The translations under genes and the position numbers were made by a program. Below are positions 10,314 to 21,311 of a stretch of 64,000 nucleotides of DNA, in pieces. Source of the DNA: Escherichia coli. GTDB lineage: Bacteria > Pseudomonadota > Gammaproteobacteria > Enterobacterales > Enterobacteriaceae. Each line of letters starts with the position of its first letter. Position 1 is the first letter of the stretch. The notes beneath the pieces were generated by a model. The model did no database searches. It saw only the letters and a list, made by a program, of their open reading frames with translations, and had not been told where the DNA came from. The stretch lies in the NCBI RefSeq assembly GCF_030384885.1, contig NZ_CP128613.1; one strand, written 5' to 3'.

Positions 10314-10573
10314 GTGAAGTGTCCCAGCCTGTTTATCTACGGCTTAAAAAGTGTTCGAGGGGAAAATAGGTTGCGCGAGATTATAGAGATCTGACGCACT
10401 AAAAACCAGTATTTCACATGAGTCCGCGTCTTTTTACGCACAGCCTCTCCCTGACGCGGGATAAAGTGGTATTCTCAAACATATCTCGCAAGCCTGTCTT
10501 GTGTTGACAACATTTTCTGCTAACCCTGTGACCTGCAATACTGTTTTGCGGGTGATCGACAAGGAGACTTAAC

Positions 10574-12031
10574 GTGTCTGAACTGTCTCAATTATCTCCA
10601 CAGCCGCTGTGGGATATTTTTGCCAAAATCTGTTCTATTCCTCACCCGTCCTATCATGAAGAGCAACTCGCTGAATACATTGTTGGTTGGGCAAAAGAGA
10701 AAGGTTTCCATGTCGAACGCGATCAGGTGGGTAATATCCTGATTCGTAAACCTGCTACCGCAGGTATGGAAAATCGTAAACCAGTCGTCTTGCAGGCCCA
10801 CCTCGATATGGTGCCGCAGAAAAATAACGATACCGTGCACGATTTCACTAAAGATCCTATCCAGCCTTATATTGATGGCGAATGGGTTAAAGCGCGCGGT
10901 ACCACGCTGGGCGCGGATAACGGCATTGGTATGGCCTCTGCACTGGCGGTTCTGGCTGACGAAAACGTGGTTCACGGCCCGCTGGAAGTGCTGCTAACCA
11001 TGACCGAAGAAGCCGGTATGGACGGGGCGTTCGGCTTACAGAGCAACTGGTTACAGGCTGACATTCTGATTAACACCGACTCCGAAGAAGAAGGTGAAAT
11101 CTACATGGGTTGTGCTGGGGGTATCGACTTCACCTCCAACCTGCATTTAGATCGTGAAGCCGTTCCGGCTGGTTTTGAAACCTTCAAATTAACCTTAAAA
11201 GGTCTGAAAGGCGGTCACTCCGGCGGTGAAATCCACGTTGGCCTGGGTAACGCGAACAAACTGCTGGTGCGCTTCCTTGCGGGACATGCAGAAGAACTGG
11301 ACCTGCGTCTTATCGATTTCAACGGCGGCACACTGCGTAACGCCATCCCGCGTGAAGCCTTTGCGACCATTGCTGTCGCAGCTGATAAAGTCGACGCGCT
11401 GAAAACGCTGGTGAATACCTATCAGGACATCCTGAAAAACGAGCTGGCAGAGAAAGAGAAAAATCTGGCCTTGTTGCTGGACTCTGTTGCGAACGATAAA
11501 GCTGCCCTGATTGCGAAATCTCGCGATACCTTTATTCGTCTGTTGAACGCCACCCCTAACGGTGTGATCCGCAACTCCGACGTAGCAAAAGGCGTGGTTG
11601 AAACCTCACTGAACGTCGGTGTCGTGACCATGACCGACAACAACGTAGAAATTCACTGCCTGATCCGTTCTCTGATCGACAGCGGTAAAGACTACGTGGT
11701 GAGCATGCTGGATTCGCTGGGTAAACTGGCAGGCGCGAAAACCGAAGCGAAAGGCGCATATCCTGGCTGGCAGCCGGACGCTAATTCTCCGGTGATGCAT
11801 CTGGTACGTGAAACCTATCAGCGCCTGTTCAACAAGACGCCGAACATCCAGATTATTCACGCGGGCCTGGAATGTGGTCTGTTCAAAAAACCGTATCCGG
11901 AAATGGACATGGTTTCTATCGGGCCAACCATCACCGGTCCACACTCTCCGGATGAGCAAGTTCACATCGAAAGCGTAGGCCATTACTGGACACTGCTGAC
12001 AGAACTGCTGAAAGAAATTCCGGCGAAGTAA
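10574..12031 (+). CDS. pepD: Cytosol non-specific dipeptidase PepD (GTG start)
   Basis: 485 aa M20-family peptidase, MSELSQLSPQPLWDIFAKICSIPHPSYHEEQ... Confidence 0.95.
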   Translation: MSELSQLSPQPLWDIFAKICSIPHPSYHEEQLAEYIVGWAKEKGFHVERDQVGNILIRKPATAGMENRKPVVLQAHLDMVPQKNNDTVHDFTKDPIQPYIDGEWVKARGTTLGADNGIGMASALAVLADENVVHGPLEVLLTMTEEAGMDGAFGLQSNWLQADILINTDSEEEGEIYMGCAGGIDFTSNLHLDREAVPAGFETFKLTLKGLKGGHSGGEIHVGLGNANKLLVRFLAGHAEELDLRLIDFNGGTLRNAIPREAFATIAVAADKVDALKTLVNTYQDILKNELAEKEKNLALLLDSVANDKAALIAKSRDTFIRLLNATPNGVIRNSDVAKGVVETSLNVGVVTMTDNNVEIHCLIRSLIDSGKDYVVSMLDSLGKLAGAKTEAKGAYPGWQPDANSPVMHLVRETYQRLFNKTPNIQIIHAGLECGLFKKPYPEMDMVSIGPTITGPHSPDEQVHIESVGHYWTLLTELLKEIPAK

Positions 12032-12041
12032 TTACAATAAT

Positions 12042-12063
12042 GTCCACGCCTGCGGGCGTGGAC
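12042..12063. terminator. Perfect hairpin immediately after pepD
   Basis: GTCCACGCCTGCGGGCGTGGAC inverted repeat starting 11 bp after the stop. Confidence 0.6.
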
Positions 12064-12329
12064 TACTGTTTGAAGCCAATGGCTATCTATATCGAAATAA
12101 CAAAACATTATGAAACTCATGAAAAGGTCGCATATTTATATAGCTGCGACCATATTTCATGGGGAGAATTTCTGATCACCAAAGAAAGTTTTGCGCTGGA
12201 ATCCGTGAAAGAACTTAAGGGTGAAAAGCAGAATTTTTATATGTTCAGAGCCTGGGGCAAAGTCAGGAAAACATACTTAGCCACGGGAGAATTTCCCCAG
12301 GAAACATGTTACGCCGCTTAAAGTCAGAA

Positions 12330-12869
12330 TCATTTTTTCACGCGTTTTACATTTACCATTTTAGCATTACGCCTGCACCACATGGCAATGGCGGCAGCTA
12401 CTAATGCCAGTTCCAGTAAAAACGACCAGTGTAATAAAAAATTGAGCCACCACGGATGATGTACCGCCGTAATATGAAAGAGTGCAAAGGGTTGGTTAAC
12501 GAAAGGCATCAACCACCAGATATCACCGACCAGCGTATCAAGCAACAAATGCACAATACCATTCAGGCAAAACACCACGCCCAGCCACGCCGGAAGTTTA
12601 TTCTTCGCAATTGCGGCCCAGACTAATGTCGCCGCCAGCAGAGCAAACCATAATAATGGCCAATGAGACGGGTAAAGATGATGATGTCGTTGCCCGTTAT
12701 CCACCAGATAACACCAGAAGAGATCAAAATCGGGTGCAACGGCCCCGACTAAGCCAATAACCATCGCCCACCGCGCATGACGAGAAATCAGCGGTAGGCG
12801 TTTCACTAAAGTACAAGTTATTAAATATCCAGCCGGAAGATGACCGATAAACATGACGAATCCTTTCAT
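12330..12869 (-). CDS. Putative membrane-bound metal-dependent hydrolase-like protein (His-rich, multi-TM; YdjM/DUF457-like), distal gene of the rtcB-prfH unit
   Basis: 179 aa with HHHLYPSHW and HITAVHHPWW motifs in hydrophobic context; begins 48 bp after the prfH stop on the same strand. Confidence 0.45.
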   Translation of the reverse strand: MKGFVMFIGHLPAGYLITCTLVKRLPLISRHARWAMVIGLVGAVAPDFDLFWCYLVDNGQRHHHLYPSHWPLLWFALLAATLVWAAIAKNKLPAWLGVVFCLNGIVHLLLDTLVGDIWWLMPFVNQPFALFHITAVHHPWWLNFLLHWSFLLELALVAAAIAMWCRRNAKMVNVKRVKK

Positions 12870-12916
12870 TTTTGCCCGCCGCTTTCACGAAGAAAACGGC
12901 GGGTGACATTCCTCTA

Positions 12917-13531
12917 TTACACAGCGATAAAAGCCATCCCTGTAAACGTCCGTCGCGGGTTGCCACGTTCAATCTGGTGATGGAACATTCGCCGCTGCGA
13001 TTTCAGCGCCGCGCTATTTTCCTGTCGCTGTTGTTCCAGCTTCCAGGCAATCAGTAATCGCGCCAGCCGTTTGTTAGCATGCTGGCTGCGCTCTGACTGA
13101 ACCTTCACGCTAATCCCGGATGCCAGATGCGTGGCGCGTACCGCCGAGTCGGTTTTATTGACATGTTGACCGCCCGGCCCCGACGAACGCAGCGTCTCAT
13201 AATGGATCGCATCGGATTGCTCCTGCTCATCTGAAGTAAAACGCCCAATGCCCAGAAACCAGTTTTTGCGCCCATGATGAGGGCGATACGGACTCGGACA
13301 AATCCACTGGATAGTGCCACACCAGCTTTCGCTTAGTGCCCATGCGTTGTCGCCATCAAGTGAAACCAGCGCCGAACGCAGTGTGTCAGAGTAGCGACCC
13401 GTTTCTGTTTCCAGCACCGTTACCGCGACGTCTTGTCGGGCAGCTTCTTTAATCAGCCTGTCCAGTGCCTTTTTCACTGCGAGACAACATTCTTCCGGCC
13501 CCTGAGCTGAGGAGAGTTGTAGCAAGATCAT
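12917..13531 (-). CDS. prfH: Peptide chain release factor homologue PrfH (full-length, GGQ motif present)
   Basis: ORF 12917..13615; likely start [16 protein letters not shown] (204 aa) overlapping the rtcB stop (ATGA); contains [16 protein letters not shown]. Confidence 0.9.
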
Positions 13532-14667
13532 CCTTTTTTCCCTCCACTGTTTTTGAGCGTCAGCACCGGACGCAGTCGCGCGACAGGAATAATTAAACCG
13601 GCCTGCACCAGACATTGCACCACACTTTCAGCCGATTTATAGGCTTGTGGCGCTTCTTCAAAGATGAGTTGTTTATCGCGACAAATTACCCGACTGCCAA
13701 GTTCAGTACGTGAGAGTTGCGTCGCCGTGTGTTTCGCTGCCAGACGCCCTTTACACTCGGTGCGCCCCCATTTACGCCCTGCCCCATGCGCCAGCGAGTG
13801 GAGCGTTTTTTCGTTCGCAACAGGCTTAACCAGCCAGGAGTAATCACCGCGTGAACCGGGAATAATCACCAGACCGTTGTCATCCGGCGTAGCCCCTTTA
13901 CGGTGTAACCATCCTTGTTGATCGCCGATTCGACATGCGCTAACAAAGTTATGCGCCACATCCAGAACCGAATTTCCGTTGGCCTTAACTTGTTGCATTA
14001 TGCGCAAAGCGATCAGCTGGCGATTAATACGCGCAAACGCCAGCGCATCGTCATGTTCCGCAATATACCGTAGCGCGTCGTCACTGCCTTGAGGCAAACC
14101 ATGATGCGAAAACGAGGCAATATGCCGCTGTAAAATAGACTGCCCCAGCCCCCTCGAGCCGCTATGAACCAGCAGTTGCAGATGCTGCGCATCCAGACCT
14201 GCCAGTGCAAACAGTTCCGCGTCGATGATTTGATCAACTTTTTGCAGTTCTGCGAAGTGGTTTCCGCCACCGATAGAGCCAAGCGCGCAGCGCCACGGAT
14301 GCTGTGCAAACGCTGACGGCAGGTTTTCCTCCAGCCAGCTTTCTTCAGCAACGTCATCCAGCGCAGATAATCGCTTTTCAAACTTATCGGCGTTGTATTT
14401 ACGCGCGAGAATATCTGTTTGCCATAGCGCCATGCCGCAGCCGATATCATTGCCGACCAGTGCCGGGTAAAAACGGCCTACGGAGAAGAACGCTGCGCCA
14501 ATCGGATAGCCGCGTCCGGGGTGTAAATCTGGCATCCCTACTACGCGTTGCATGTCGGGTAAATTTGCCGAGGTGTGTAATTGTTGGATCGCTGAACTCT
14601 CGATCCACAGGTCATCAGATGCGATGGTAAATACCGCATCGGATAAGGGACGAATATATTTGCCCAT
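13528..14667 (-). CDS. rtcB: RtcB-family RNA ligase paralogue (RtcB2), full length
   Basis: 379 aa with His/Cys metal-ligand pattern (GNDIGCGMA...NHF...HSGSRG...HNF); translationally coupled to prfH. Confidence 0.85.
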
Positions 14668-14984
14668 GTATCATTCCATTTATACTCGTCATACTTCAAG
14701 TTGCATGTACTGCGACTGCGTTCGTTCACCCCAGTCACTTACTTTAGTAAGCTCCTGGGGATTCACTCGCTTGTCGCCTTCCTGCAACTCGAATTATTTA
14801 GAGTATATAAATATAAAAATCAAGAAATGGCAGACGAATCCAGGGCAAGAAAAAAAGAATTAATCCTGGAAAGGTCTGCAAAGAGTCATTGATAAAGGAT
14901 TTTTCATGATTTACCTCCTTGCAGTTTGTGGAATAAGAAAACGCGCACATATTAGGCGGGCGTTATTTTCATTGCAAGCTGGAT

Positions 14985-15437
14985 TTAGTGTTGCGGTTTA
15001 TATCGCATATGAAAATTAGTAAACCACGCTCCCCGGCATTCAACGCGCTGCTGCTTAACTGTCTGAAAACCATAACGTTCAAAAAAGGGTTTTGCGGTTA
15101 TGCTGGCATCTACCGTAAGTTCGGATTCAGACTTAATCAAAGGTTTTAACAAAGCGCTGGCAACCCCGCAGCGGTTGTATTTCGGATCAACAAATAACAT
15201 ATCGATATAATGCTCAATGCAGGTAATAAAGCCGACCAGTTGTGTATTAATAACCGCAACCCGCACTTGTGATTTCGCGAGTTTCTCTTTCCATCGATGT
15301 TCATCAATCTGCGCCCAGGCGGCAATTTGTTGTGGTGAATAATGCTGACTAGCGGTCATCGTAACCGCTCTAATAAAAATAGCGCATAGTTGCTGAAAAT
15401 CGCCAGGCTGATAGTTCCTTATTTGTATATTATTCAT
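14985..15437 (-). CDS. yafP: GNAT-family N-acetyltransferase YafP
   Basis: 150 aa, [17 protein letters not shown]...; 4-nt overlap with the dinB stop. Confidence 0.85.
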
Positions 15438-16489
15438 AATCCCAGCACCAGTTGTCTTTCCATTTGCGGATCAAGCAACGTCACATGCAGCCCCACCAGT
15501 CGCACACCGCGCCCGCCACGGCGTTCATCCCAGGTTTTACGCGCAGTGGCGATCAAGTCAGCTTTATTCAGCCGCGGCCAGACGTGTTCCTGGGTGGTTT
15601 GCTGAAAATCGTCGAACTTTAATTTCACCCCCTGGCGGGCAATCAGTAAATCAGGTTTTACCTTTGCCAGACGACGTTCAAGTTCCGGGTACAACCGCTC
15701 GATGATCGCTTCACATTCAGACCAGTGATGAATATCTTCCGCCATCGTGCGTTCTACACCGACGGATTTTCGCAACCTTTCGCTGTTAACGTCGCGCTCG
15801 TCAATGCCCTGACTACGCTCCCACAAAATGCGGCCAAATTTGCCAAAGCGTTTAAGCAATGTCACCAGATCACACTTTTGTACATCGCCGCAGGTTCGTA
15901 GCCCCATCGCTTCCAGTTTTGCCGCCGAGACTTTGCCGACACCGGGAATTTTTGCCAGCGGTAAGGTTTGCAGAAATGCCGGAACTTCTGCTGGCGTAAT
16001 CACAAACTGACCGTTGGGTTTATTCATGTCTGAGGCGATTTTGGCGAGAAACTTGACCGGCGCAACGCCCGCAGACGCCGTCAGTTGCAGCTCGTTGAAG
16101 ATCGTCTGGCGGATTTCCTGAGCGATAAGGGTCGCAGAGCCGTGGCAATGGACACTATCGGTGACGTCGAGATAGGCTTCATCCAGTGACAGCGGCTCAA
16201 TACGCGATGTGTAGCGAGAGAAGATTTCGCGGATATGATTTGACGCTTCTTTGTAGGCGTCAAAGCGCCCTGGAAGCAAGGTGAGATGCGGACACAGTTT
16301 GAGCGCCATGCCGGTTGGCATTGCGCTACGCACGCCAAATTTACGCGCAGGATAATTGGCGGTGCTGATCACCCCCCGGCGTTCGCGGCTGCCGCCAATA
16401 GCAATAGGGATATCGCGCAGGGCGGGATTGTCGCGCATCTCCACCGCGGCGAAAAAGCAGTCCATATCCACATGAATGATTTTACGCAT
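15434..16489 (-). CDS. dinB: DNA polymerase IV (Y-family translesion polymerase)
   Basis: 351 aa, [33 protein letters not shown]... Confidence 0.95.
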
Positions 16490-16505
16490 TGCTCACCTCT
16501 CAATA

Positions 16506-16521
16506 CTGGTAAAGTATACAG
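16506..16521. promoter_or_regulatory. LexA (SOS) box upstream of dinB
   Basis: CTGGTAAAGTATACAG, i.e. CTG-N10-CAG palindrome, 17 bp upstream of the dinB start codon. Confidence 0.75.
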
Positions 16522-16559
16522 TGATTTCAGAGTTTGAGAAATGCGTAAAGATTCAGCAT

Positions 16560-17138
16560 TTAACGCGTTCGCTGCGAAAGCACCTGCTGCTTATCCAGCT
16601 TTTTCACCAACGGCTGCACCACTTTATCGCCATGCTGACCAAAATATTGATACAACGTATCGGACGCGCTTTTGGTGAGCACCATAATCTCAATGCGCCG
16701 ATTGCCCGCGCTTTGTGGATTTTTGGCATCCAGCAGCATCTGGTCCGCCATTGCGCTCACCCGCGCTTCGCCCTGTAACACCGGCTGCAACTGGCGGTCC
16801 ACCGCGCCGCCGGAAAGTGCGGTGCGTTTGTCCAGCATCTGCGTGAGCGCCGTACCCTGCGCCTGCCCGCTCTTACGCTGGCTATGACGATAATCGAGCA
16901 ATTGCTGCTCCAGTTGCCCGAGATAGTGATCCGCCTGCTGCAACGTGGTGAGCTGATCGTTAAGCTGCACGCTGTAACGCTGCGGGCGAGTGGTAATCAG
17001 CGGCGAGGCCGGATATTCACTCGCCGTCGCCGGGAGCTTTTGCCGCACCGCCTGAGTGGGCGCAACGGTTGACGACGATACCGCAGCGCTATGCGCGCCG
17101 CCGGTGGCGAGTGATGAAGATGTAAGTCCGACCTGCAT
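16560..17138 (-). pseudogene. lafU: Remnant of lateral-flagellar MotB-like gene (lafU); only the C-terminal OmpA-like tail is recognisable
   Basis: 192-aa ORF ending ...AKNPQSAGNRRIEIMVL (OmpA/MotB tail) but N-terminal region low-complexity with no TM anchor; sits between lfgL and dinB where the laf cluster would be. Confidence 0.4.
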
Positions 17139-17154
17139 ACTGTTCCTGAAAGAG

Positions 17155-18108
17155 TTAGAGAACGCTGAACAAATTCAACTCACTCACCTTCGAGTAAGTC
17201 TTGAGGGTAGCTTCCATTGCCACTTCCAGTCCGGTAAAGGTGATCGACGCCGGGCCGTAATCGAGATCCTGCAATGAACCAATCAACTCATCATTAGAGG
17301 TAGAGATATCGGTCTGCGCATCGCTCAGCATCGACATGGTGTTTTGTGTCTCGCCGAGCGACGCAATCGAGGCGTTGAGGTCGTCCGAGGCGGTGTCCAC
17401 CACATTAACGGCGTTTTGAATATCGCTTTGTACCTGCGGATCTGCCGGGTCAACGTTAGGGTTTTGCAACTCCTGCGACAGGGCATTGAGCGTGTTGAGC
17501 ACATCTAAATTGCTGCCAAAGAAATCGCTCGCCGCCACGTTGGTGTCTACTTCGACGCCGTTCGACACCGTAGTCTGGCGATGGTCGCTGTTACCCTGAT
17601 AGCTGTAGCGATCGGTCACGCCATCACCGTCATCGTCCACCGCCACAATCGGCGGTTGATCGTTGATAGTGCCGCCAAAGACGTAATGCCCGTCTTCATC
17701 CTGATAGTTGAGCGCCGCCACCATCGATTCGGTTAGCGACTCAATATCCTGACCGAGGCTTGCCAGCGAATCGGCGGTATTGGTGCCGTTCGCTGCTTCC
17801 AGCAGGTCGTCGCGCACCGCCAGCAGGCTGTTGTTGACGCCATCAAGAATGGATTCCTGCTGGCTTAAGCCCGCCGACGCGGAGTCGATATTGCTCTGAT
17901 ACTGCTCAATCGCCGACTGCTGGCGGTTCAACTGGGTGATACGTGTGGCGGCGATAGGATCATCCGATGGCTGCAAAATTTCCTTGCCGGTTGCCATCTG
18001 CTCGACCACGTGCGCCAGTTCGCCAGAAAGATTATTAAAACTTTGCGTCATCGAGACGTAGGTTTGTTGGGTGGTTACTCGCATTTTCGCGCTCCCGCTT
18101 AGCTGCAC
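17155..18108 (-). CDS. lfgL: Flagellar hook-associated protein 3 (FlgL homologue), Flag-2
   Basis: 317 aa, flagellin-like N/C termini; follows lfgK. Confidence 0.8.
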   Translation of the reverse strand: MQLSGSAKMRVTTQQTYVSMTQSFNNLSGELAHVVEQMATGKEILQPSDDPIAATRITQLNRQQSAIEQYQSNIDSASAGLSQQESILDGVNNSLLAVRDDLLEAANGTNTADSLASLGQDIESLTESMVAALNYQDEDGHYVFGGTINDQPPIVAVDDDGDGVTDRYSYQGNSDHRQTTVSNGVEVDTNVAASDFFGSNLDVLNTLNALSQELQNPNVDPADPQVQSDIQNAVNVVDTASDDLNASIASLGETQNTMSMLSDAQTDISTSNDELIGSLQDLDYGPASITFTGLEVAMEATLKTYSKVSELNLFSVL

Positions 18109-19475
18109 ATTTCCAGCACCGAATCAAAAATCTCGGCCCCGGCGGAAATGACTTTCAGATTGGCTTCATAAATTTGTTGATAGGTGATCAGGTTCACCGC
18201 CTCTTCGTCCATGCTGACGCCGCTGACGCTGCTCTGCTGGTTTTGCGCCTCAGAATAGACATTGGACGCAGCGGTCACTTCGGTCTGGTTTTGCTGAGTG
18301 TAAATGCCAATATTGCTGATGATCGACGAGCACGCTTGCCCGACCGTCACGCTGCCGAGGTTGGCTATCTCCAGCGGCTCAGTGGAGATGTTGATCAGCG
18401 CCTGCAGGTTGTCGCTGTTGCCGCTTTCGTCCGGCGAACTGGAGAACGCCAGTTCATCGGCGGTGATATCCGGGTTAACGGTCAGCGGGCCATCGGCATT
18501 ACTGGCATCGTAAATAAACAGCGGCTCGCCGGGGTTACCGTTGAGATCATAGCCCTGCGCCAGCTGATTGTTGACCGCATCGGCGAACTGCGACGCCATG
18601 CTGTTGATGGTGTCGGTCAGCGGCGTCAGCACGTCGTTTTGATAATCAAAAAGTGCGCCTAATGAACCGCCGGTATCGGTGGTCATGGTCGAGGTCGTTC
18701 CGGCAAAGGTCAGTGTCATCGTTGGCGTGCCATCGGCGTTGGTTTCCAGCGCGATGGTCGAACTTTGCTGCCCGCTCACCAGCGGCTGACCGTTTTGCAG
18801 GGTGACGTTGTAGTTGCCCTGGTCGTCGATATTGACCTGCACATCCATCATTCCGCTGAGTTCTTCCACCATCTGATCACGAGCGTCATACAGCGCGGAG
18901 GCGTTATCACCGTTGGCTTCGGCCTGGGCGATTTGCTGGTTATAGCTGGCGATGCCGCTGGTGAGCGTATTGATTTGCGACACCATCGCCTGCTGCTGGC
19001 TGATGATTTCTGTGCTTTGCGAGTCGATGTAATCGAGCGTGTTATCGATACGCAACGACAGCGCCCCGGCTTCGCTGATCACCTGCTCGCGCAGGGCAGA
19101 ATCATCGGGGCTGGTGGTCGCTTCGTTGAGGGCCGCGAAAAAGTTATCGAACCCGCCGCTCAGGCTACTGTTATCGTCGCTCAATACCGCTTCCAGTTGC
19201 GTGAGATACCCTTGCTGGGTGTTGTAATAGCCGTAATCGCTGGCGGCATACCACACCTGATTCACCTGATACTGGTTGGAGACGCGACGAATGCTGTCCA
19301 CCTGTACACCGTTTCCGGCGCTGTTCGGCGAACCGCCGCTGGCACCGATGGTGCTGATCTCCGCCACCTGGCGGGTGTAGCCCGTGGTCATGGCGTTAGC
19401 GGTGTTTTGCGCCGTGACGTTCAGCTCCACCTGCGCCGTTGATGCGCCGCTGTAGCCGATGTTAATCATGTCCAT
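18099..19475 (-). CDS. lfgK: Flagellar hook-associated protein 1 (FlgK homologue), Flag-2
   Basis: 458 aa, MDMINIGYSGASTAQVELNVTAQNTANAMTTGYTRQ... and conserved C-terminus. Confidence 0.85.
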   Translation of the reverse strand: MDMINIGYSGASTAQVELNVTAQNTANAMTTGYTRQVAEISTIGASGGSPNSAGNGVQVDSIRRVSNQYQVNQVWYAASDYGYYNTQQGYLTQLEAVLSDDNSSLSGGFDNFFAALNEATTSPDDSALREQVISEAGALSLRIDNTLDYIDSQSTEIISQQQAMVSQINTLTSGIASYNQQIAQAEANGDNASALYDARDQMVEELSGMMDVQVNIDDQGNYNVTLQNGQPLVSGQQSSTIALETNADGTPTMTLTFAGTTSTMTTDTGGSLGALFDYQNDVLTPLTDTINSMASQFADAVNNQLAQGYDLNGNPGEPLFIYDASNADGPLTVNPDITADELAFSSSPDESGNSDNLQALINISTEPLEIANLGSVTVGQACSSIISNIGIYTQQNQTEVTAASNVYSEAQNQQSSVSGVSMDEEAVNLITYQQIYEANLKVISAGAEIFDSVLEMCS

Positions 19476-19544
19476 GTTGGATCCTTACCGGTAAATCGTG
19501 CCGGATAAAAGCGGCGTGAAGTTGGGGATTCTTAAGTTCCGTAA

Positions 19545-19885
<341 letters not shown>

Positions 19886-19896
19886 ACGTCGGAGCC

Positions 19897-20196
19897 TCAT
19901 TTATGCTTCGGCGACAACTGCTTCACAATCATCGCCGCGATCCCTATCCCGTGCTGCTGCGCCAGGGTGTTACACAACTCATCGTCATAAAACCCCTGCA
20001 TCATGCGCACCGAATCGCTGTTAAATGGGTTATCTTTCGAATCAAACAACTCGTTGGTTTTACGCATCTCTTTCAGCATGTTGCGTAAAAAAATCGCCTC
20101 AAACTGTTCGGCGGCCTGCTTAATATCATTGGCCTGAACCTTCGGCCCCATTAACGCATCGCTGCCGTCAATCCCGCCGCTGGCGTTGACTTTCAT
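19897..20196 (-). CDS. lfgJ: FlgJ-like rod-binding protein (N-terminal domain only, no muramidase domain), Flag-2
   Basis: 99 aa, ...AAEQFEAIFLRNMLKEMRKT...; position after flgI. Confidence 0.75.
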   Translation of the reverse strand: MKVNASGGIDGSDALMGPKVQANDIKQAAEQFEAIFLRNMLKEMRKTNELFDSKDNPFNSDSVRMMQGFYDDELCNTLAQQHGIGIAAMIVKQLSPKHK

Positions 20197-21311
20197 CAGA
20201 TCACCTCCAGGTCGGCATCCAGCGCGCCCGCTTCATGCAGCGCCTGCAAAATCGACATAATGTCGTCCGGCGTTGCGCCTAAACTGTTCAGCGCATTGAC
20301 CAGCGTTTTCAGGCTGCTCGACTCCGGCAAACTCACCACGCCCGGACGGGCATGATTCACCGCGATATTGCTCTGCGGCGTTACCGCCGTACGCCCGCCC
20401 GCAAAGGCATTCGGCTGGCTGACGTTGCTGGTTTCGTTAATTGAGACGGTCAGGCTGCCGTGCGACACCGCCGCCGCGTGCAGCGCGATGCCATCGCCCA
20501 TCACCACCGTACCGGTACGCGAGTTAAACACCACGCGGGCGCGGATTTTCTCCGCCTGCACCTGCACATCATCCAGTTGCGACATAAACGCCACCCGCGC
20601 GCCGGGGCTGGTGGGCGCACGCACGGTGACGTTGGTGGAACTCTGCGCCGTGGCAATGCCGCCAAACGAAGCGTTGATCGCCGCCGCAATGTTGTTGGCG
20701 TCTTTAAACGACGGGCGTTTCAGGTTAAGCGTGATGGTGTCGCCCATCTGAAAATCGCTGGGGATTTCGCGCTCCACCGTCGCGCCATTGGGGATTAACC
20801 CGGCGGTCGGCGTATTAACCGTTACGCTCGAGCCGCTGGCCCCGGTGGCATTCATCCCGCCCACCACCACACTTCCCTGCGCCAGGGCATACACTTCGCC
20901 ATCTGCGCCGTGCAACTGGGTCAGCAGCAAGGTGCCGCCGCGAATACTTTTGGCATCGCCAATCGACGAGACGGTGACATCAATAGTCTGCCCACGCGAG
21001 TACATCGGCGGCAACGTGGCGCTCACCGCCACCGCGGCGACGTTTTTCACCTTCGGGTCGATTTTATTTGGCAACTGCACGCCAAACTGGCGCAGCATAT
21101 TGGTGATGGTCTGGTTGGTGAATTTGACCTGGTTTTTATCGCCCGTACCGTCGAGGCCGACCACCAGGCTGTAGCCGACCAGTTGGTTTTCACGCACGCC
21201 CTGTACGTTGACCAGCGACTCCAGCGATTGCGCCAGCGCCACGCCAGGTAGCGCCAGGCTTACGGCTACCATCACCGTTTTTATCCAGTTTTGCATTGCA
21301 CTCTCCGGCAT
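20196..21311 (-). CDS. lfgI: Flagellar P-ring protein (FlgI homologue), Flag-2
   Basis: 371 aa with signal peptide; synteny. Confidence 0.9.

Follow-up and report, generated by a model that had tools for sequence, protein, structure and literature searches.

Introduction

The dinB operon of Escherichia coli has been described in a four-gene and a two-gene form. For the four-gene form, Christensen-Dalsgaard et al. (2010, PMC2814082) showed two sources of yafNO transcription: its own YafN-autoregulated promoter and read-through from the dinB promoter, which is under SOS control. The two-gene form, with an ATGA overlap, was found in 40% of sequenced strains and in 50% of the ECOR strains (Gutierrez et al. 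2011, PMC3105422). The same authors argued that the four-gene operon is ancestral, since E. fergusonii carries all four genes, and that recombination between two ATGA sequences led to at least three independent losses of yafNO. In strain CFT073, which has the two-gene allele, mitomycin C induces the synthesis of YafP, as seen with a YafP-YFP fusion, and Pol IV offsets the YafP-dependent cytotoxicity of nitroaromatic compounds (PMC3105422). The opposite view of the history of the operon has also been put forward: dinB-yafP is an undisturbed bicistron in strains like UTI89, and the toxin-antitoxin (TA) pair was inserted between its cistrons (Fraikin et al. 2020, PMC7167474).

Here, the dinB-yafP locus in a 64 kb stretch of E. 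coli DNA (the window) is compared with these systems. Very probably, the locus is a known form of the SOS-regulated dinB operon, namely its common two-gene allele. The observation and the insertion reading have each been published before, and the discovery value is little, the operon and its frequency having been printed in 2011 (PMC3105422) and the insertion reading in the 2020 review (PMC7167474). A small question remains, namely which form came first and how a TA cassette holds the same address across genera; this makes a tidy case study of TA mobility, not a major question.

Genes and junction of the locus

15434..16489, minus strand, dinB, DNA polymerase IV, 351 aa (NCBIfam, Pfam, K-12 comparison)
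14985..15437, minus strand, yafP, GNAT N-acetyltransferase, 150 aa (NCBIfam, Pfam, K-12 comparison)
15434..15440, minus strand, junction ATTATGA (read directly from the sequence)

DinB of the window matched NF002677, the NCBIfam equivalog of DNA polymerase IV, with 547.4 bits (cut-off 256) over residues 1–345, contains the Pfam domains IMS, IMS_HHH, and IMS_C, and is 99.7% identical to K-12 DinB. Its full-length equivalog match, together with the catalytic acidic residues D8, D103, and E104 visible in the translation, identifies it as a predicted Pol IV of the Y family. YafP matched NF007338, the equivalog of YafP-type GNAT proteins, with 317.1 bits (cut-off 146) over residues 1–150 of 150, and contains the domains Acetyltransf_10, Acetyltransf_7, and Acetyltransf_1. 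It is 92% identical to K-12 YafP and, by this full-length match above the cut-off, is a predicted YafP-type GNAT.

On the minus strand, where the junction reads GGATTATGAATAAT, the ATGA at 15434–15437 is common to the stop codon TGA of dinB and the start codon ATG of yafP, which bears out the 4-nt overlap reported in the initial annotation. That annotation had also spoken of dinB as fused to yafP. The two genes are indeed directly adjacent; they are nevertheless two ORFs in different frames (dinB, GGA TTA TGA; yafP, ATG AAT AAC), and no single reading frame joins them. The K-12 gene order given there, dinB-yafN-yafO-yafP, is correct. The yafNO genes might have been located elsewhere in the operon, which would have told against its reading. 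A tblastn search with K-12 YafN and YafO as queries found neither gene in the 64 kb window (best E-values 1.2 and 4.6); a YafN-YafO type II system, recognized by a Phd/YefM-like antitoxin upstream of a YafO toxin (PF13957), is thus absent from it. The other reservation was a sequencing or assembly artefact, with the cassette collapsed or lost from the assembly. This explanation can be given practically no weight: 2,569 complete E. coli genomes carry the same contiguous junction, it recurs in four further Escherichia or related species, and in the window dinB and yafP are both intact ORFs in the expected frames.

Regulatory signals and expected expression

16504..16523, minus strand, LexA (SOS) box CACTGTATACTTTACCAGTA (sequence match and conservation)
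16506–16521, minus strand, core of the LexA box CTGTATACTTTACCAG, CTG-N10-CAG (sequence match)
16513..16540, minus strand, sigma-70-like dinB promoter, TTCTCA, 16 nt, TATACT (consensus scan, 9 of 12 matches)
16490..16500, minus strand, dinB Shine-Dalgarno region, AGAGGTGAGCA before ATG (read from the sequence)
14934..14964, minus strand, tentative candidate for an operon terminator, a weak hairpin and U-run downstream of yafP (fold)

The LexA box noted upstream of dinB in the initial annotation was thus located at 16504–16523. An alignment of seven taxa from four genera (Escherichia, Citrobacter, Kluyvera, and Pseudocitrobacter) shows no variation in the columns CTGTATACTT and CAGT, and the single base that differs between the window and K-12 lies outside the core. 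The dinB promoter is a consensus match only, whose position agrees with a conserved block of the same alignment; its −10-like hexamer, TATACT, falls inside the LexA box. These features indicate a predicted LexA-controlled promoter upstream of dinB. Within the Shine-Dalgarno region, GAGGTG is conserved in Escherichia and Citrobacter. The hairpin 3' of yafP (−13.2 kcal/mol, z = −1.17) was not significant and the terminator scan made no call there, so that a terminator at this site lacks statistical support.

Taken together, the ATGA overlap, the LexA box, and the lack of yafNO between the genes assign the locus, as judged from its sequence, to the two-gene dinB-yafP allele of the CFT073 type. 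A single LexA-repressed promoter would give a bicistronic dinB-yafP mRNA. As yafP lacks its own strong ribosome-binding site, its translation would most likely begin by termination-reinitiation at the ATGA overlap, in which case YafP synthesis would be tied in time and place to that of Pol IV. We infer such a translational coupling of yafP to dinB at ATGA from the arrangement of the junction; the authors of PMC3105422 described yafP translation as possibly needing frameshifting, which counts against reinitiation. Annotators can treat the missing yafNO at this locus as ordinary variation rather than a mistake, and the strain is suited to studying YafP and Pol IV without the TA pair.

The yafNO segment and its boundaries

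The left junction of K-12-type four-gene alleles reads GGGATTATGA/TGTATAC and continues into the yafN promoter region, and the right junction of K-12 reads TATATTATGA/ATAAC. Aligned with each other, four-gene alleles have the structure GGGATTATGA/TGTATAC...yafN...yafO...TTTTTGAATTTATATTATGA/ATAAC, and compact alleles simply GGGATTATGA/ATAAC. The extra segment of the four-gene alleles is 759 bp long, and the direct repeat at its two ends is the 7-bp sequence ATTATGA, not ATGA alone. In K-12, E. whittamii, and the divergent genome SCPM-O-B-8794, a copy lies at either end of the 759-bp segment, and the junction of the window has a single copy; no comparable flanking repeat was seen in the four-gene allele of Pseudocitrobacter.

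The 7-bp repeat is suggestive of a target duplication. However, ATTATG recurs in the AT-rich yafN promoter, so the repeat need not have arisen in this way. This promoter also contains a 21-nt direct repeat, the left copy of which takes in the end of dinB. No pair of terminal inverted repeats was found at the two ends of the yafNO segment, and it encodes no transposase or integrase, its sole genes in K-12 being yafN and yafO. Of the hallmarks of an insertion of the transposable-element type, these two are absent from the segment.

Whether or not they are a target duplication, the ATTATGA repeats allow precise deletion of the segment that they bound, and the change is thus reversible. This bears on the published view (Gutierrez et al. 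2011), according to which the four-gene operon is ancestral in Escherichia and the window allele would be a secondary loss of yafNO by recombination between two ATGA sequences, here ATTATGA. The repeats provide exactly the ends that such a loss would use, and we give this reading about an even chance. It nevertheless needs two coincidences: that the dinB terminus is identical to the yafP start region over 7 nt, and that the compact junction matches the Citrobacter junction exactly, by three codons and without a gap.

Frequency and allelic variation in E. coli

With a 200-bp probe across a compact junction, the compact form was found contiguous in 2,569 of 5,426 complete E. coli genomes (47%). 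The yafNO segment of K-12 was matched in 2,847 of the 5,426 (52%), with at least 80% of the segment covered in 2,831 genomes and less than 80% of the query in the other 16. Jointly, the two counts account for nearly every genome with the locus. The cassette is also found in decay: IS1 lies inside yafO in one genome, and E. coli GF43 and Escherichia sp. E1V33 have kept yafN and deleted yafO at a TTAT microhomology. Partial variants of the latter kind, along with the 16 incomplete matches, favor secondary loss.

The neighbor-joining trees of dinB and yafP point the same way. Compact and four-gene alleles are interleaved in both, and no variable site tracks the state. Some alleles of opposite state have nearly identical flanks, as in the comparison of compact KE26 and MP1 with four-gene NU14 and SCU387; between KE26 and NU14, the final 400 nt of dinB contain one difference and the 453 sites of yafP two. 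Such pairs indicate that changes of state have been recent and recurrent. Deletion between the repeats is their simplest cause, and recombination with crossovers in the conserved bases beside the junction is a possible alternative.

Synonymous divergence differs along the operon. In the more divergent Escherichia lineage pairs, synonymous differences are 2–6.6 times fewer in the coding part of yafN and yafO than in dinB and yafP combined (Fisher p down to 1e-9), and between K-12 and E. whittamii dS is 0.058 for yafNO and 0.233 for pepD; the three closest E. coli pairs showed no significant synonymous excess in the flanks over yafNO. These values speak for an exchange of the cassette's coding part across Escherichia species. 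If the low dS does reflect transfer, a four-gene operon in a sister species becomes weaker as proof of ancestry, and the outgroup argument for secondary loss, which relies on one species, is weakened with it. Yet the 51-nt spacer between dinB and yafN, with 5–6 differences, has diverged like the flanks, so the pattern is not simply the recent arrival of a whole cassette. Low synonymous divergence of yafNO was accordingly rejected as decisive proof of recent arrival.

The haplotype of the window stands apart. Its dinB-yafP sequence has about 94% DNA identity to most E. coli alleles, and its dinB has a dS of 0.25–0.36 to every sampled haplotype except that of the close relative MFDS1022581 (0.09), which makes it as deep as that of E. 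whittamii. Among the 5,426 E. coli genomes, 18 are at least 95% identical to this haplotype, and all 18 are compact. This uniformity and the depth of the haplotype indicate that its compact state is old. These observations favor a second reading, in which the junction of the window has never held the cassette, preserves an unbroken ancestral compact form, and the four-gene alleles are later insertions in other lineages. The low yafNO divergence, which suggests that the cassette has moved between lineages, also agrees with it, with the reservation that the diverged spacer keeps this from being simple evidence of recent arrival. A further difficulty is that precise deletion at ATTATGA would leave an identical sequence, so that the two histories look alike at the junction itself. 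A junction that never held the cassette is possible, its chance falling somewhat short of even; put simply as a never-occupied against a re-emptied site, the odds for the window allele are roughly even.

The locus in other species and genera

The initial annotation had proposed comparing the dinB-yafP junction across Enterobacteriaceae. The comparison revealed the compact form in Citrobacter amalonaticus, Kluyvera, and Pseudocitrobacter faecalis, as expected for an ancestral state; some Pseudocitrobacter have the four-gene form. The compact junctions read dinB TAA, CCGCG, ATG yafP in C. amalonaticus, dinB TAA, CC, ATG yafP in Kluyvera sichuanensis, and TAA, TT or TC, ATG in P. faecalis and another Pseudocitrobacter. 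Within Escherichia, E. marmotae and Escherichia sp. MOD1-EC7003 are compact with the ATGA overlap. The compact dinB-yafP of C. amalonaticus, K. sichuanensis, P. faecalis, E. marmotae, and MOD1-EC7003 is in every case in pepD-gpt-frsA synteny. The YafP-protein scan of genome contigs returned five loci and, its exact peptide patterns being strict, missed E. fergusonii, E. albertii, E. ruysiae, and reference E. coli. E. fergusonii and E. albertii are thus outside the taxa sampled here, and the four-gene state of the former is taken from PMC3105422.

The compact Escherichia junction aligns with the Citrobacter junction without a gap. One TAA-to-TGA change in the Citrobacter junction creates an in-frame ATG, and a start there accounts precisely for the three additional N-terminal codons seen in Escherichia YafP. 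No other single argument speaks as well for the ATGA compact form having preceded the four-gene form in Escherichia. It was also considered whether the TGA stop of dinB in compact Escherichia is a scar left by the cassette; this was rejected, as the one base in question is all that separates E. marmotae from the Citrobacter terminus. E. marmotae, the most basal Escherichia lineage sampled, is compact, which tells against secondary loss. Compactness in other genera and basal Escherichia, and the gap-free alignment with Citrobacter, are by the same token what a never-occupied junction in the window would predict.

Four-gene operons were also found in E. whittamii and in SCPM-O-B-8794, a divergent genome labelled E. 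coli. With E. fergusonii (PMC3105422), they favor the published view of an ancestral four-gene operon. Beyond Escherichia, four-gene operons occur in metagenomic contigs assigned to Pseudocitrobacter. YafP of these contigs shares 98.6% identity with a cluster that bears the names of several Pseudocitrobacter species; their YafO cluster carries those of P. sp. 73, P. corydidari, and P. vendiensis. This operon shares the left junction TGA/TGTATAC with E. coli, while its YafN and YafO are 83.5% and 84.8% identical to those of K-12 and synonymous sites are saturated. The identical junction and the saturated divergence indicate that the dinB-linked cassette is much older than E. coli. That the cassette at this junction predates the genus speaks against a window junction that never held it.

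Pseudocitrobacter is itself polymorphic, with both compact and four-gene alleles. Between the two, about 70 identical bases are followed by five differences crowded into the final 16 nt of dinB, a pattern suggesting that the cassette arrived along with the donor's dinB terminus. In a Superficieibacter-like contig (PepD 95% identical), dinB is followed after 98 nt by yafN-yafO and then by pepD, and yafP is lacking. A 79%-identical YafO in a dinB context was discarded, the contig being a four-gene locus of E. coli in which G-to-A changes are pervasive, and thus a conversion artefact. Stand-alone relatives of yafNO (YafO about 67–69%, YafN 60–62% identity) are present in Klebsiella, Pectobacteriaceae, and others, where they sit between unrelated genes or in islands beside TraD or shufflon genes. 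Such settings are typical of mobile TA cassettes.

Order of events

The initial annotation held the compact arrangement to be ancestral and the TA pair to be an insertion, and it took the absence of the pair in this strain as the ancestral state. The first part is upheld by the outgroup junctions, the gap-free alignment, and the stand-alone cassettes, all of which point to yafNO as an insertion relative to an older compact locus. The second part does not follow: the cassette is old at the site, the alleles are interleaved, and the repeats permit precise loss. Overall, we consider it likely that the compact form is the older one and was turned into the four-gene form when the cassette inserted into an ATGA-type junction. 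Against this order are the very old four-gene allele of Pseudocitrobacter, the Superficieibacter-like dinB-yafNO, and the four genes of E. fergusonii (PMC3105422).

The yafN-yafO pair, present in K-12 and about 52% of E. coli, is an accessory type II TA cassette that brings an autoregulated promoter of its own. With the compact form first, its entry into an ATGA-type dinB-yafP junction would have formed the four-gene operon, and precise deletion between the ATTATGA repeats would regenerate the compact junction. Homologous recombination could carry either state between lineages. We infer both this order of events and the deletion mechanism from the comparisons above.

A more detailed scheme, rather doubtful as a whole, runs opposite to the published direction in Escherichia. 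A Citrobacter-like junction (TAA, 5 nt, ATG) would first have become ATGA by one TAA-to-TGA change. A pre-existing dinB-linked yafNO module would then have entered by recombination facilitated by homology and carried the last dinB codons along, and the same would have happened in Pseudocitrobacter, whose four-gene allele has the five changes at the end of dinB. The module would thus cycle between Enterobacteriaceae, gained by recombination and lost by deletion at the 7-bp repeats, and the window would represent a pristine empty site.

Comparison with known systems

The closest counterpart of the locus is the two-gene operon of CFT073 and UTI89 (PMC3105422, PMC7167474), in which yafP likewise follows dinB with the ATGA overlap, a LexA box lies upstream of dinB, and yafNO is lacking. 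It differs in that the window allele is a rare and deep sequence haplotype. With the four-gene operon of K-12, it shares the dinB promoter, the LexA box, dinB, yafP, and the chromosomal position between the Flag-2 remnant and rtcB/prfH-pepD. K-12, however, has 759 bp more, comprising the yafN promoter, yafN, yafO, and the second ATTATGA, and its yafP starts 9 nt after the yafO stop codon, whereas yafP of the window overlaps dinB.

In C. amalonaticus, K. sichuanensis, and P. faecalis, dinB is likewise followed by yafP beside pepD-gpt-frsA, and the LexA box is conserved. Their junctions differ from that of the window in having a TAA stop codon and a spacer of 2–5 nt instead of the ATGA overlap, and their YafP lacks the three N-terminal codons of Escherichia. 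Identity to YafP of the window is 55–57% for Kluyvera and C. amalonaticus and 54% for Pseudocitrobacter, the latter value being taken from a four-gene contig. A similar pattern is known from relA-mazEF-mazG, as described in a review (PMC7167474), from which the likeness is taken. Although the genes and the locus differ from dinB-yafP, there too a strain-variable accessory type II TA cassette lies between two cistrons of an operon that is intact without it.

Variation of the yafNO Cassette between dinB and yafP

Pseudocitrobacter is a second genus in which the yafNO toxin-antitoxin cassette is polymorphic for presence and absence between dinB and yafP, as seen from its four-gene loci (L016–L018) versus its compact, two-gene loci (L039–L046). 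Within the final 16 nt of dinB, the four-gene allele carries a cluster of five differences, a pattern that would fit arrival of the cassette together with a foreign dinB terminus. A Superficieibacter-like contig adds a third type of linkage between dinB and yafNO:

L034, 2,492 nt: dinB, a 98-nt spacer, yafN-yafO, then convergent pepD; yafP is absent.

The yafN-yafO genes of this contig are about 75% identical to those of K-12.

Partial cassettes also occur. Two strains carry a three-gene variant, dinB-yafN-yafP:

L004, 3676–4453: Escherichia sp. E1V33.
L032, 2252–3029: E. coli GF43.

In both strains, yafO has been lost beyond codon 8, at a TTAT microhomology, and yafN remains as an orphan antitoxin gene after the deletion. 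Coverage of the query was below 80% in 16 E. coli genomes having a cassette match.

Synonymous Divergence of the Cassette

Four-gene operons (L001, L005, L006, and L027–L030) were compared with respect to synonymous divergence. In the more divergent pairs of Escherichia lineages, synonymous differences in yafN and especially yafO were fewer by a factor of 2–6.6 than in the neighbouring genes dinB, yafP, and pepD. Despite this low divergence of the cassette genes, the 51-nt spacer between dinB and yafN has diverged as much as the flanks. Gene conversion confined to the coding part could account for the low values in yafN and yafO; alternatively, they could stem from constraint on synonymous sites.

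The E. coli four-gene dinB locus L033 (Logan contig SRR27475577_1125) carries pervasive G-to-A substitutions, for example, GGGATTATGA to AAAATTATAA. These look like a base-conversion or damage artefact of the source reads, and this contig inflates apparent YafO diversity in the protein database.

The Window Locus and Its Surroundings

E. coli 2013C-4282 (L002, 6735–7789) has the sole genome that matches the window almost completely in the dinB region. Its dinB is annotated as frameshifted and the matched stretch is one base shorter than that of the window, in which dinB is intact. The identity ends exactly at the following ORF:

16560–17138, minus strand: in-frame lafW-like'-'lafU fusion, 192 aa, junction near 16760.

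The N-terminal ~126 residues of this ORF derive from the gene located after flgL where Flag-2 loci are intact (84% identity across 151 aa), and the C-terminal 66 residues derive from LafU (97% identity). An in-frame ORF of two origins therefore indicates that a Flag-2 deletion is present in the window. For positions 10500–20500, coverage of at least 80% was reached by a single complete E. coli genome, at only 94.8% identity.

In the interval that separates flgK from the flagellar gene after it, at about 19490–19900, short repeated units of palindromic appearance are clustered and are visible as recurring ORF fragments (e.g., ...LIRPT...RIRR...); this cluster is probably a REP/BIME-type array.

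Comparison with K-12

The Flag-2 scar of K-12 is lfhA'-'lafU, whereas that of the window is lafW-like'-'lafU, i.e., a distinct deletion. A second difference concerns the following gene pair:

12917–14667, minus strand: rtcB-family RNA ligase gene and prfH (release factor H).

Both genes are truncated pseudogenes in K-12, whereas both are intact in the window.
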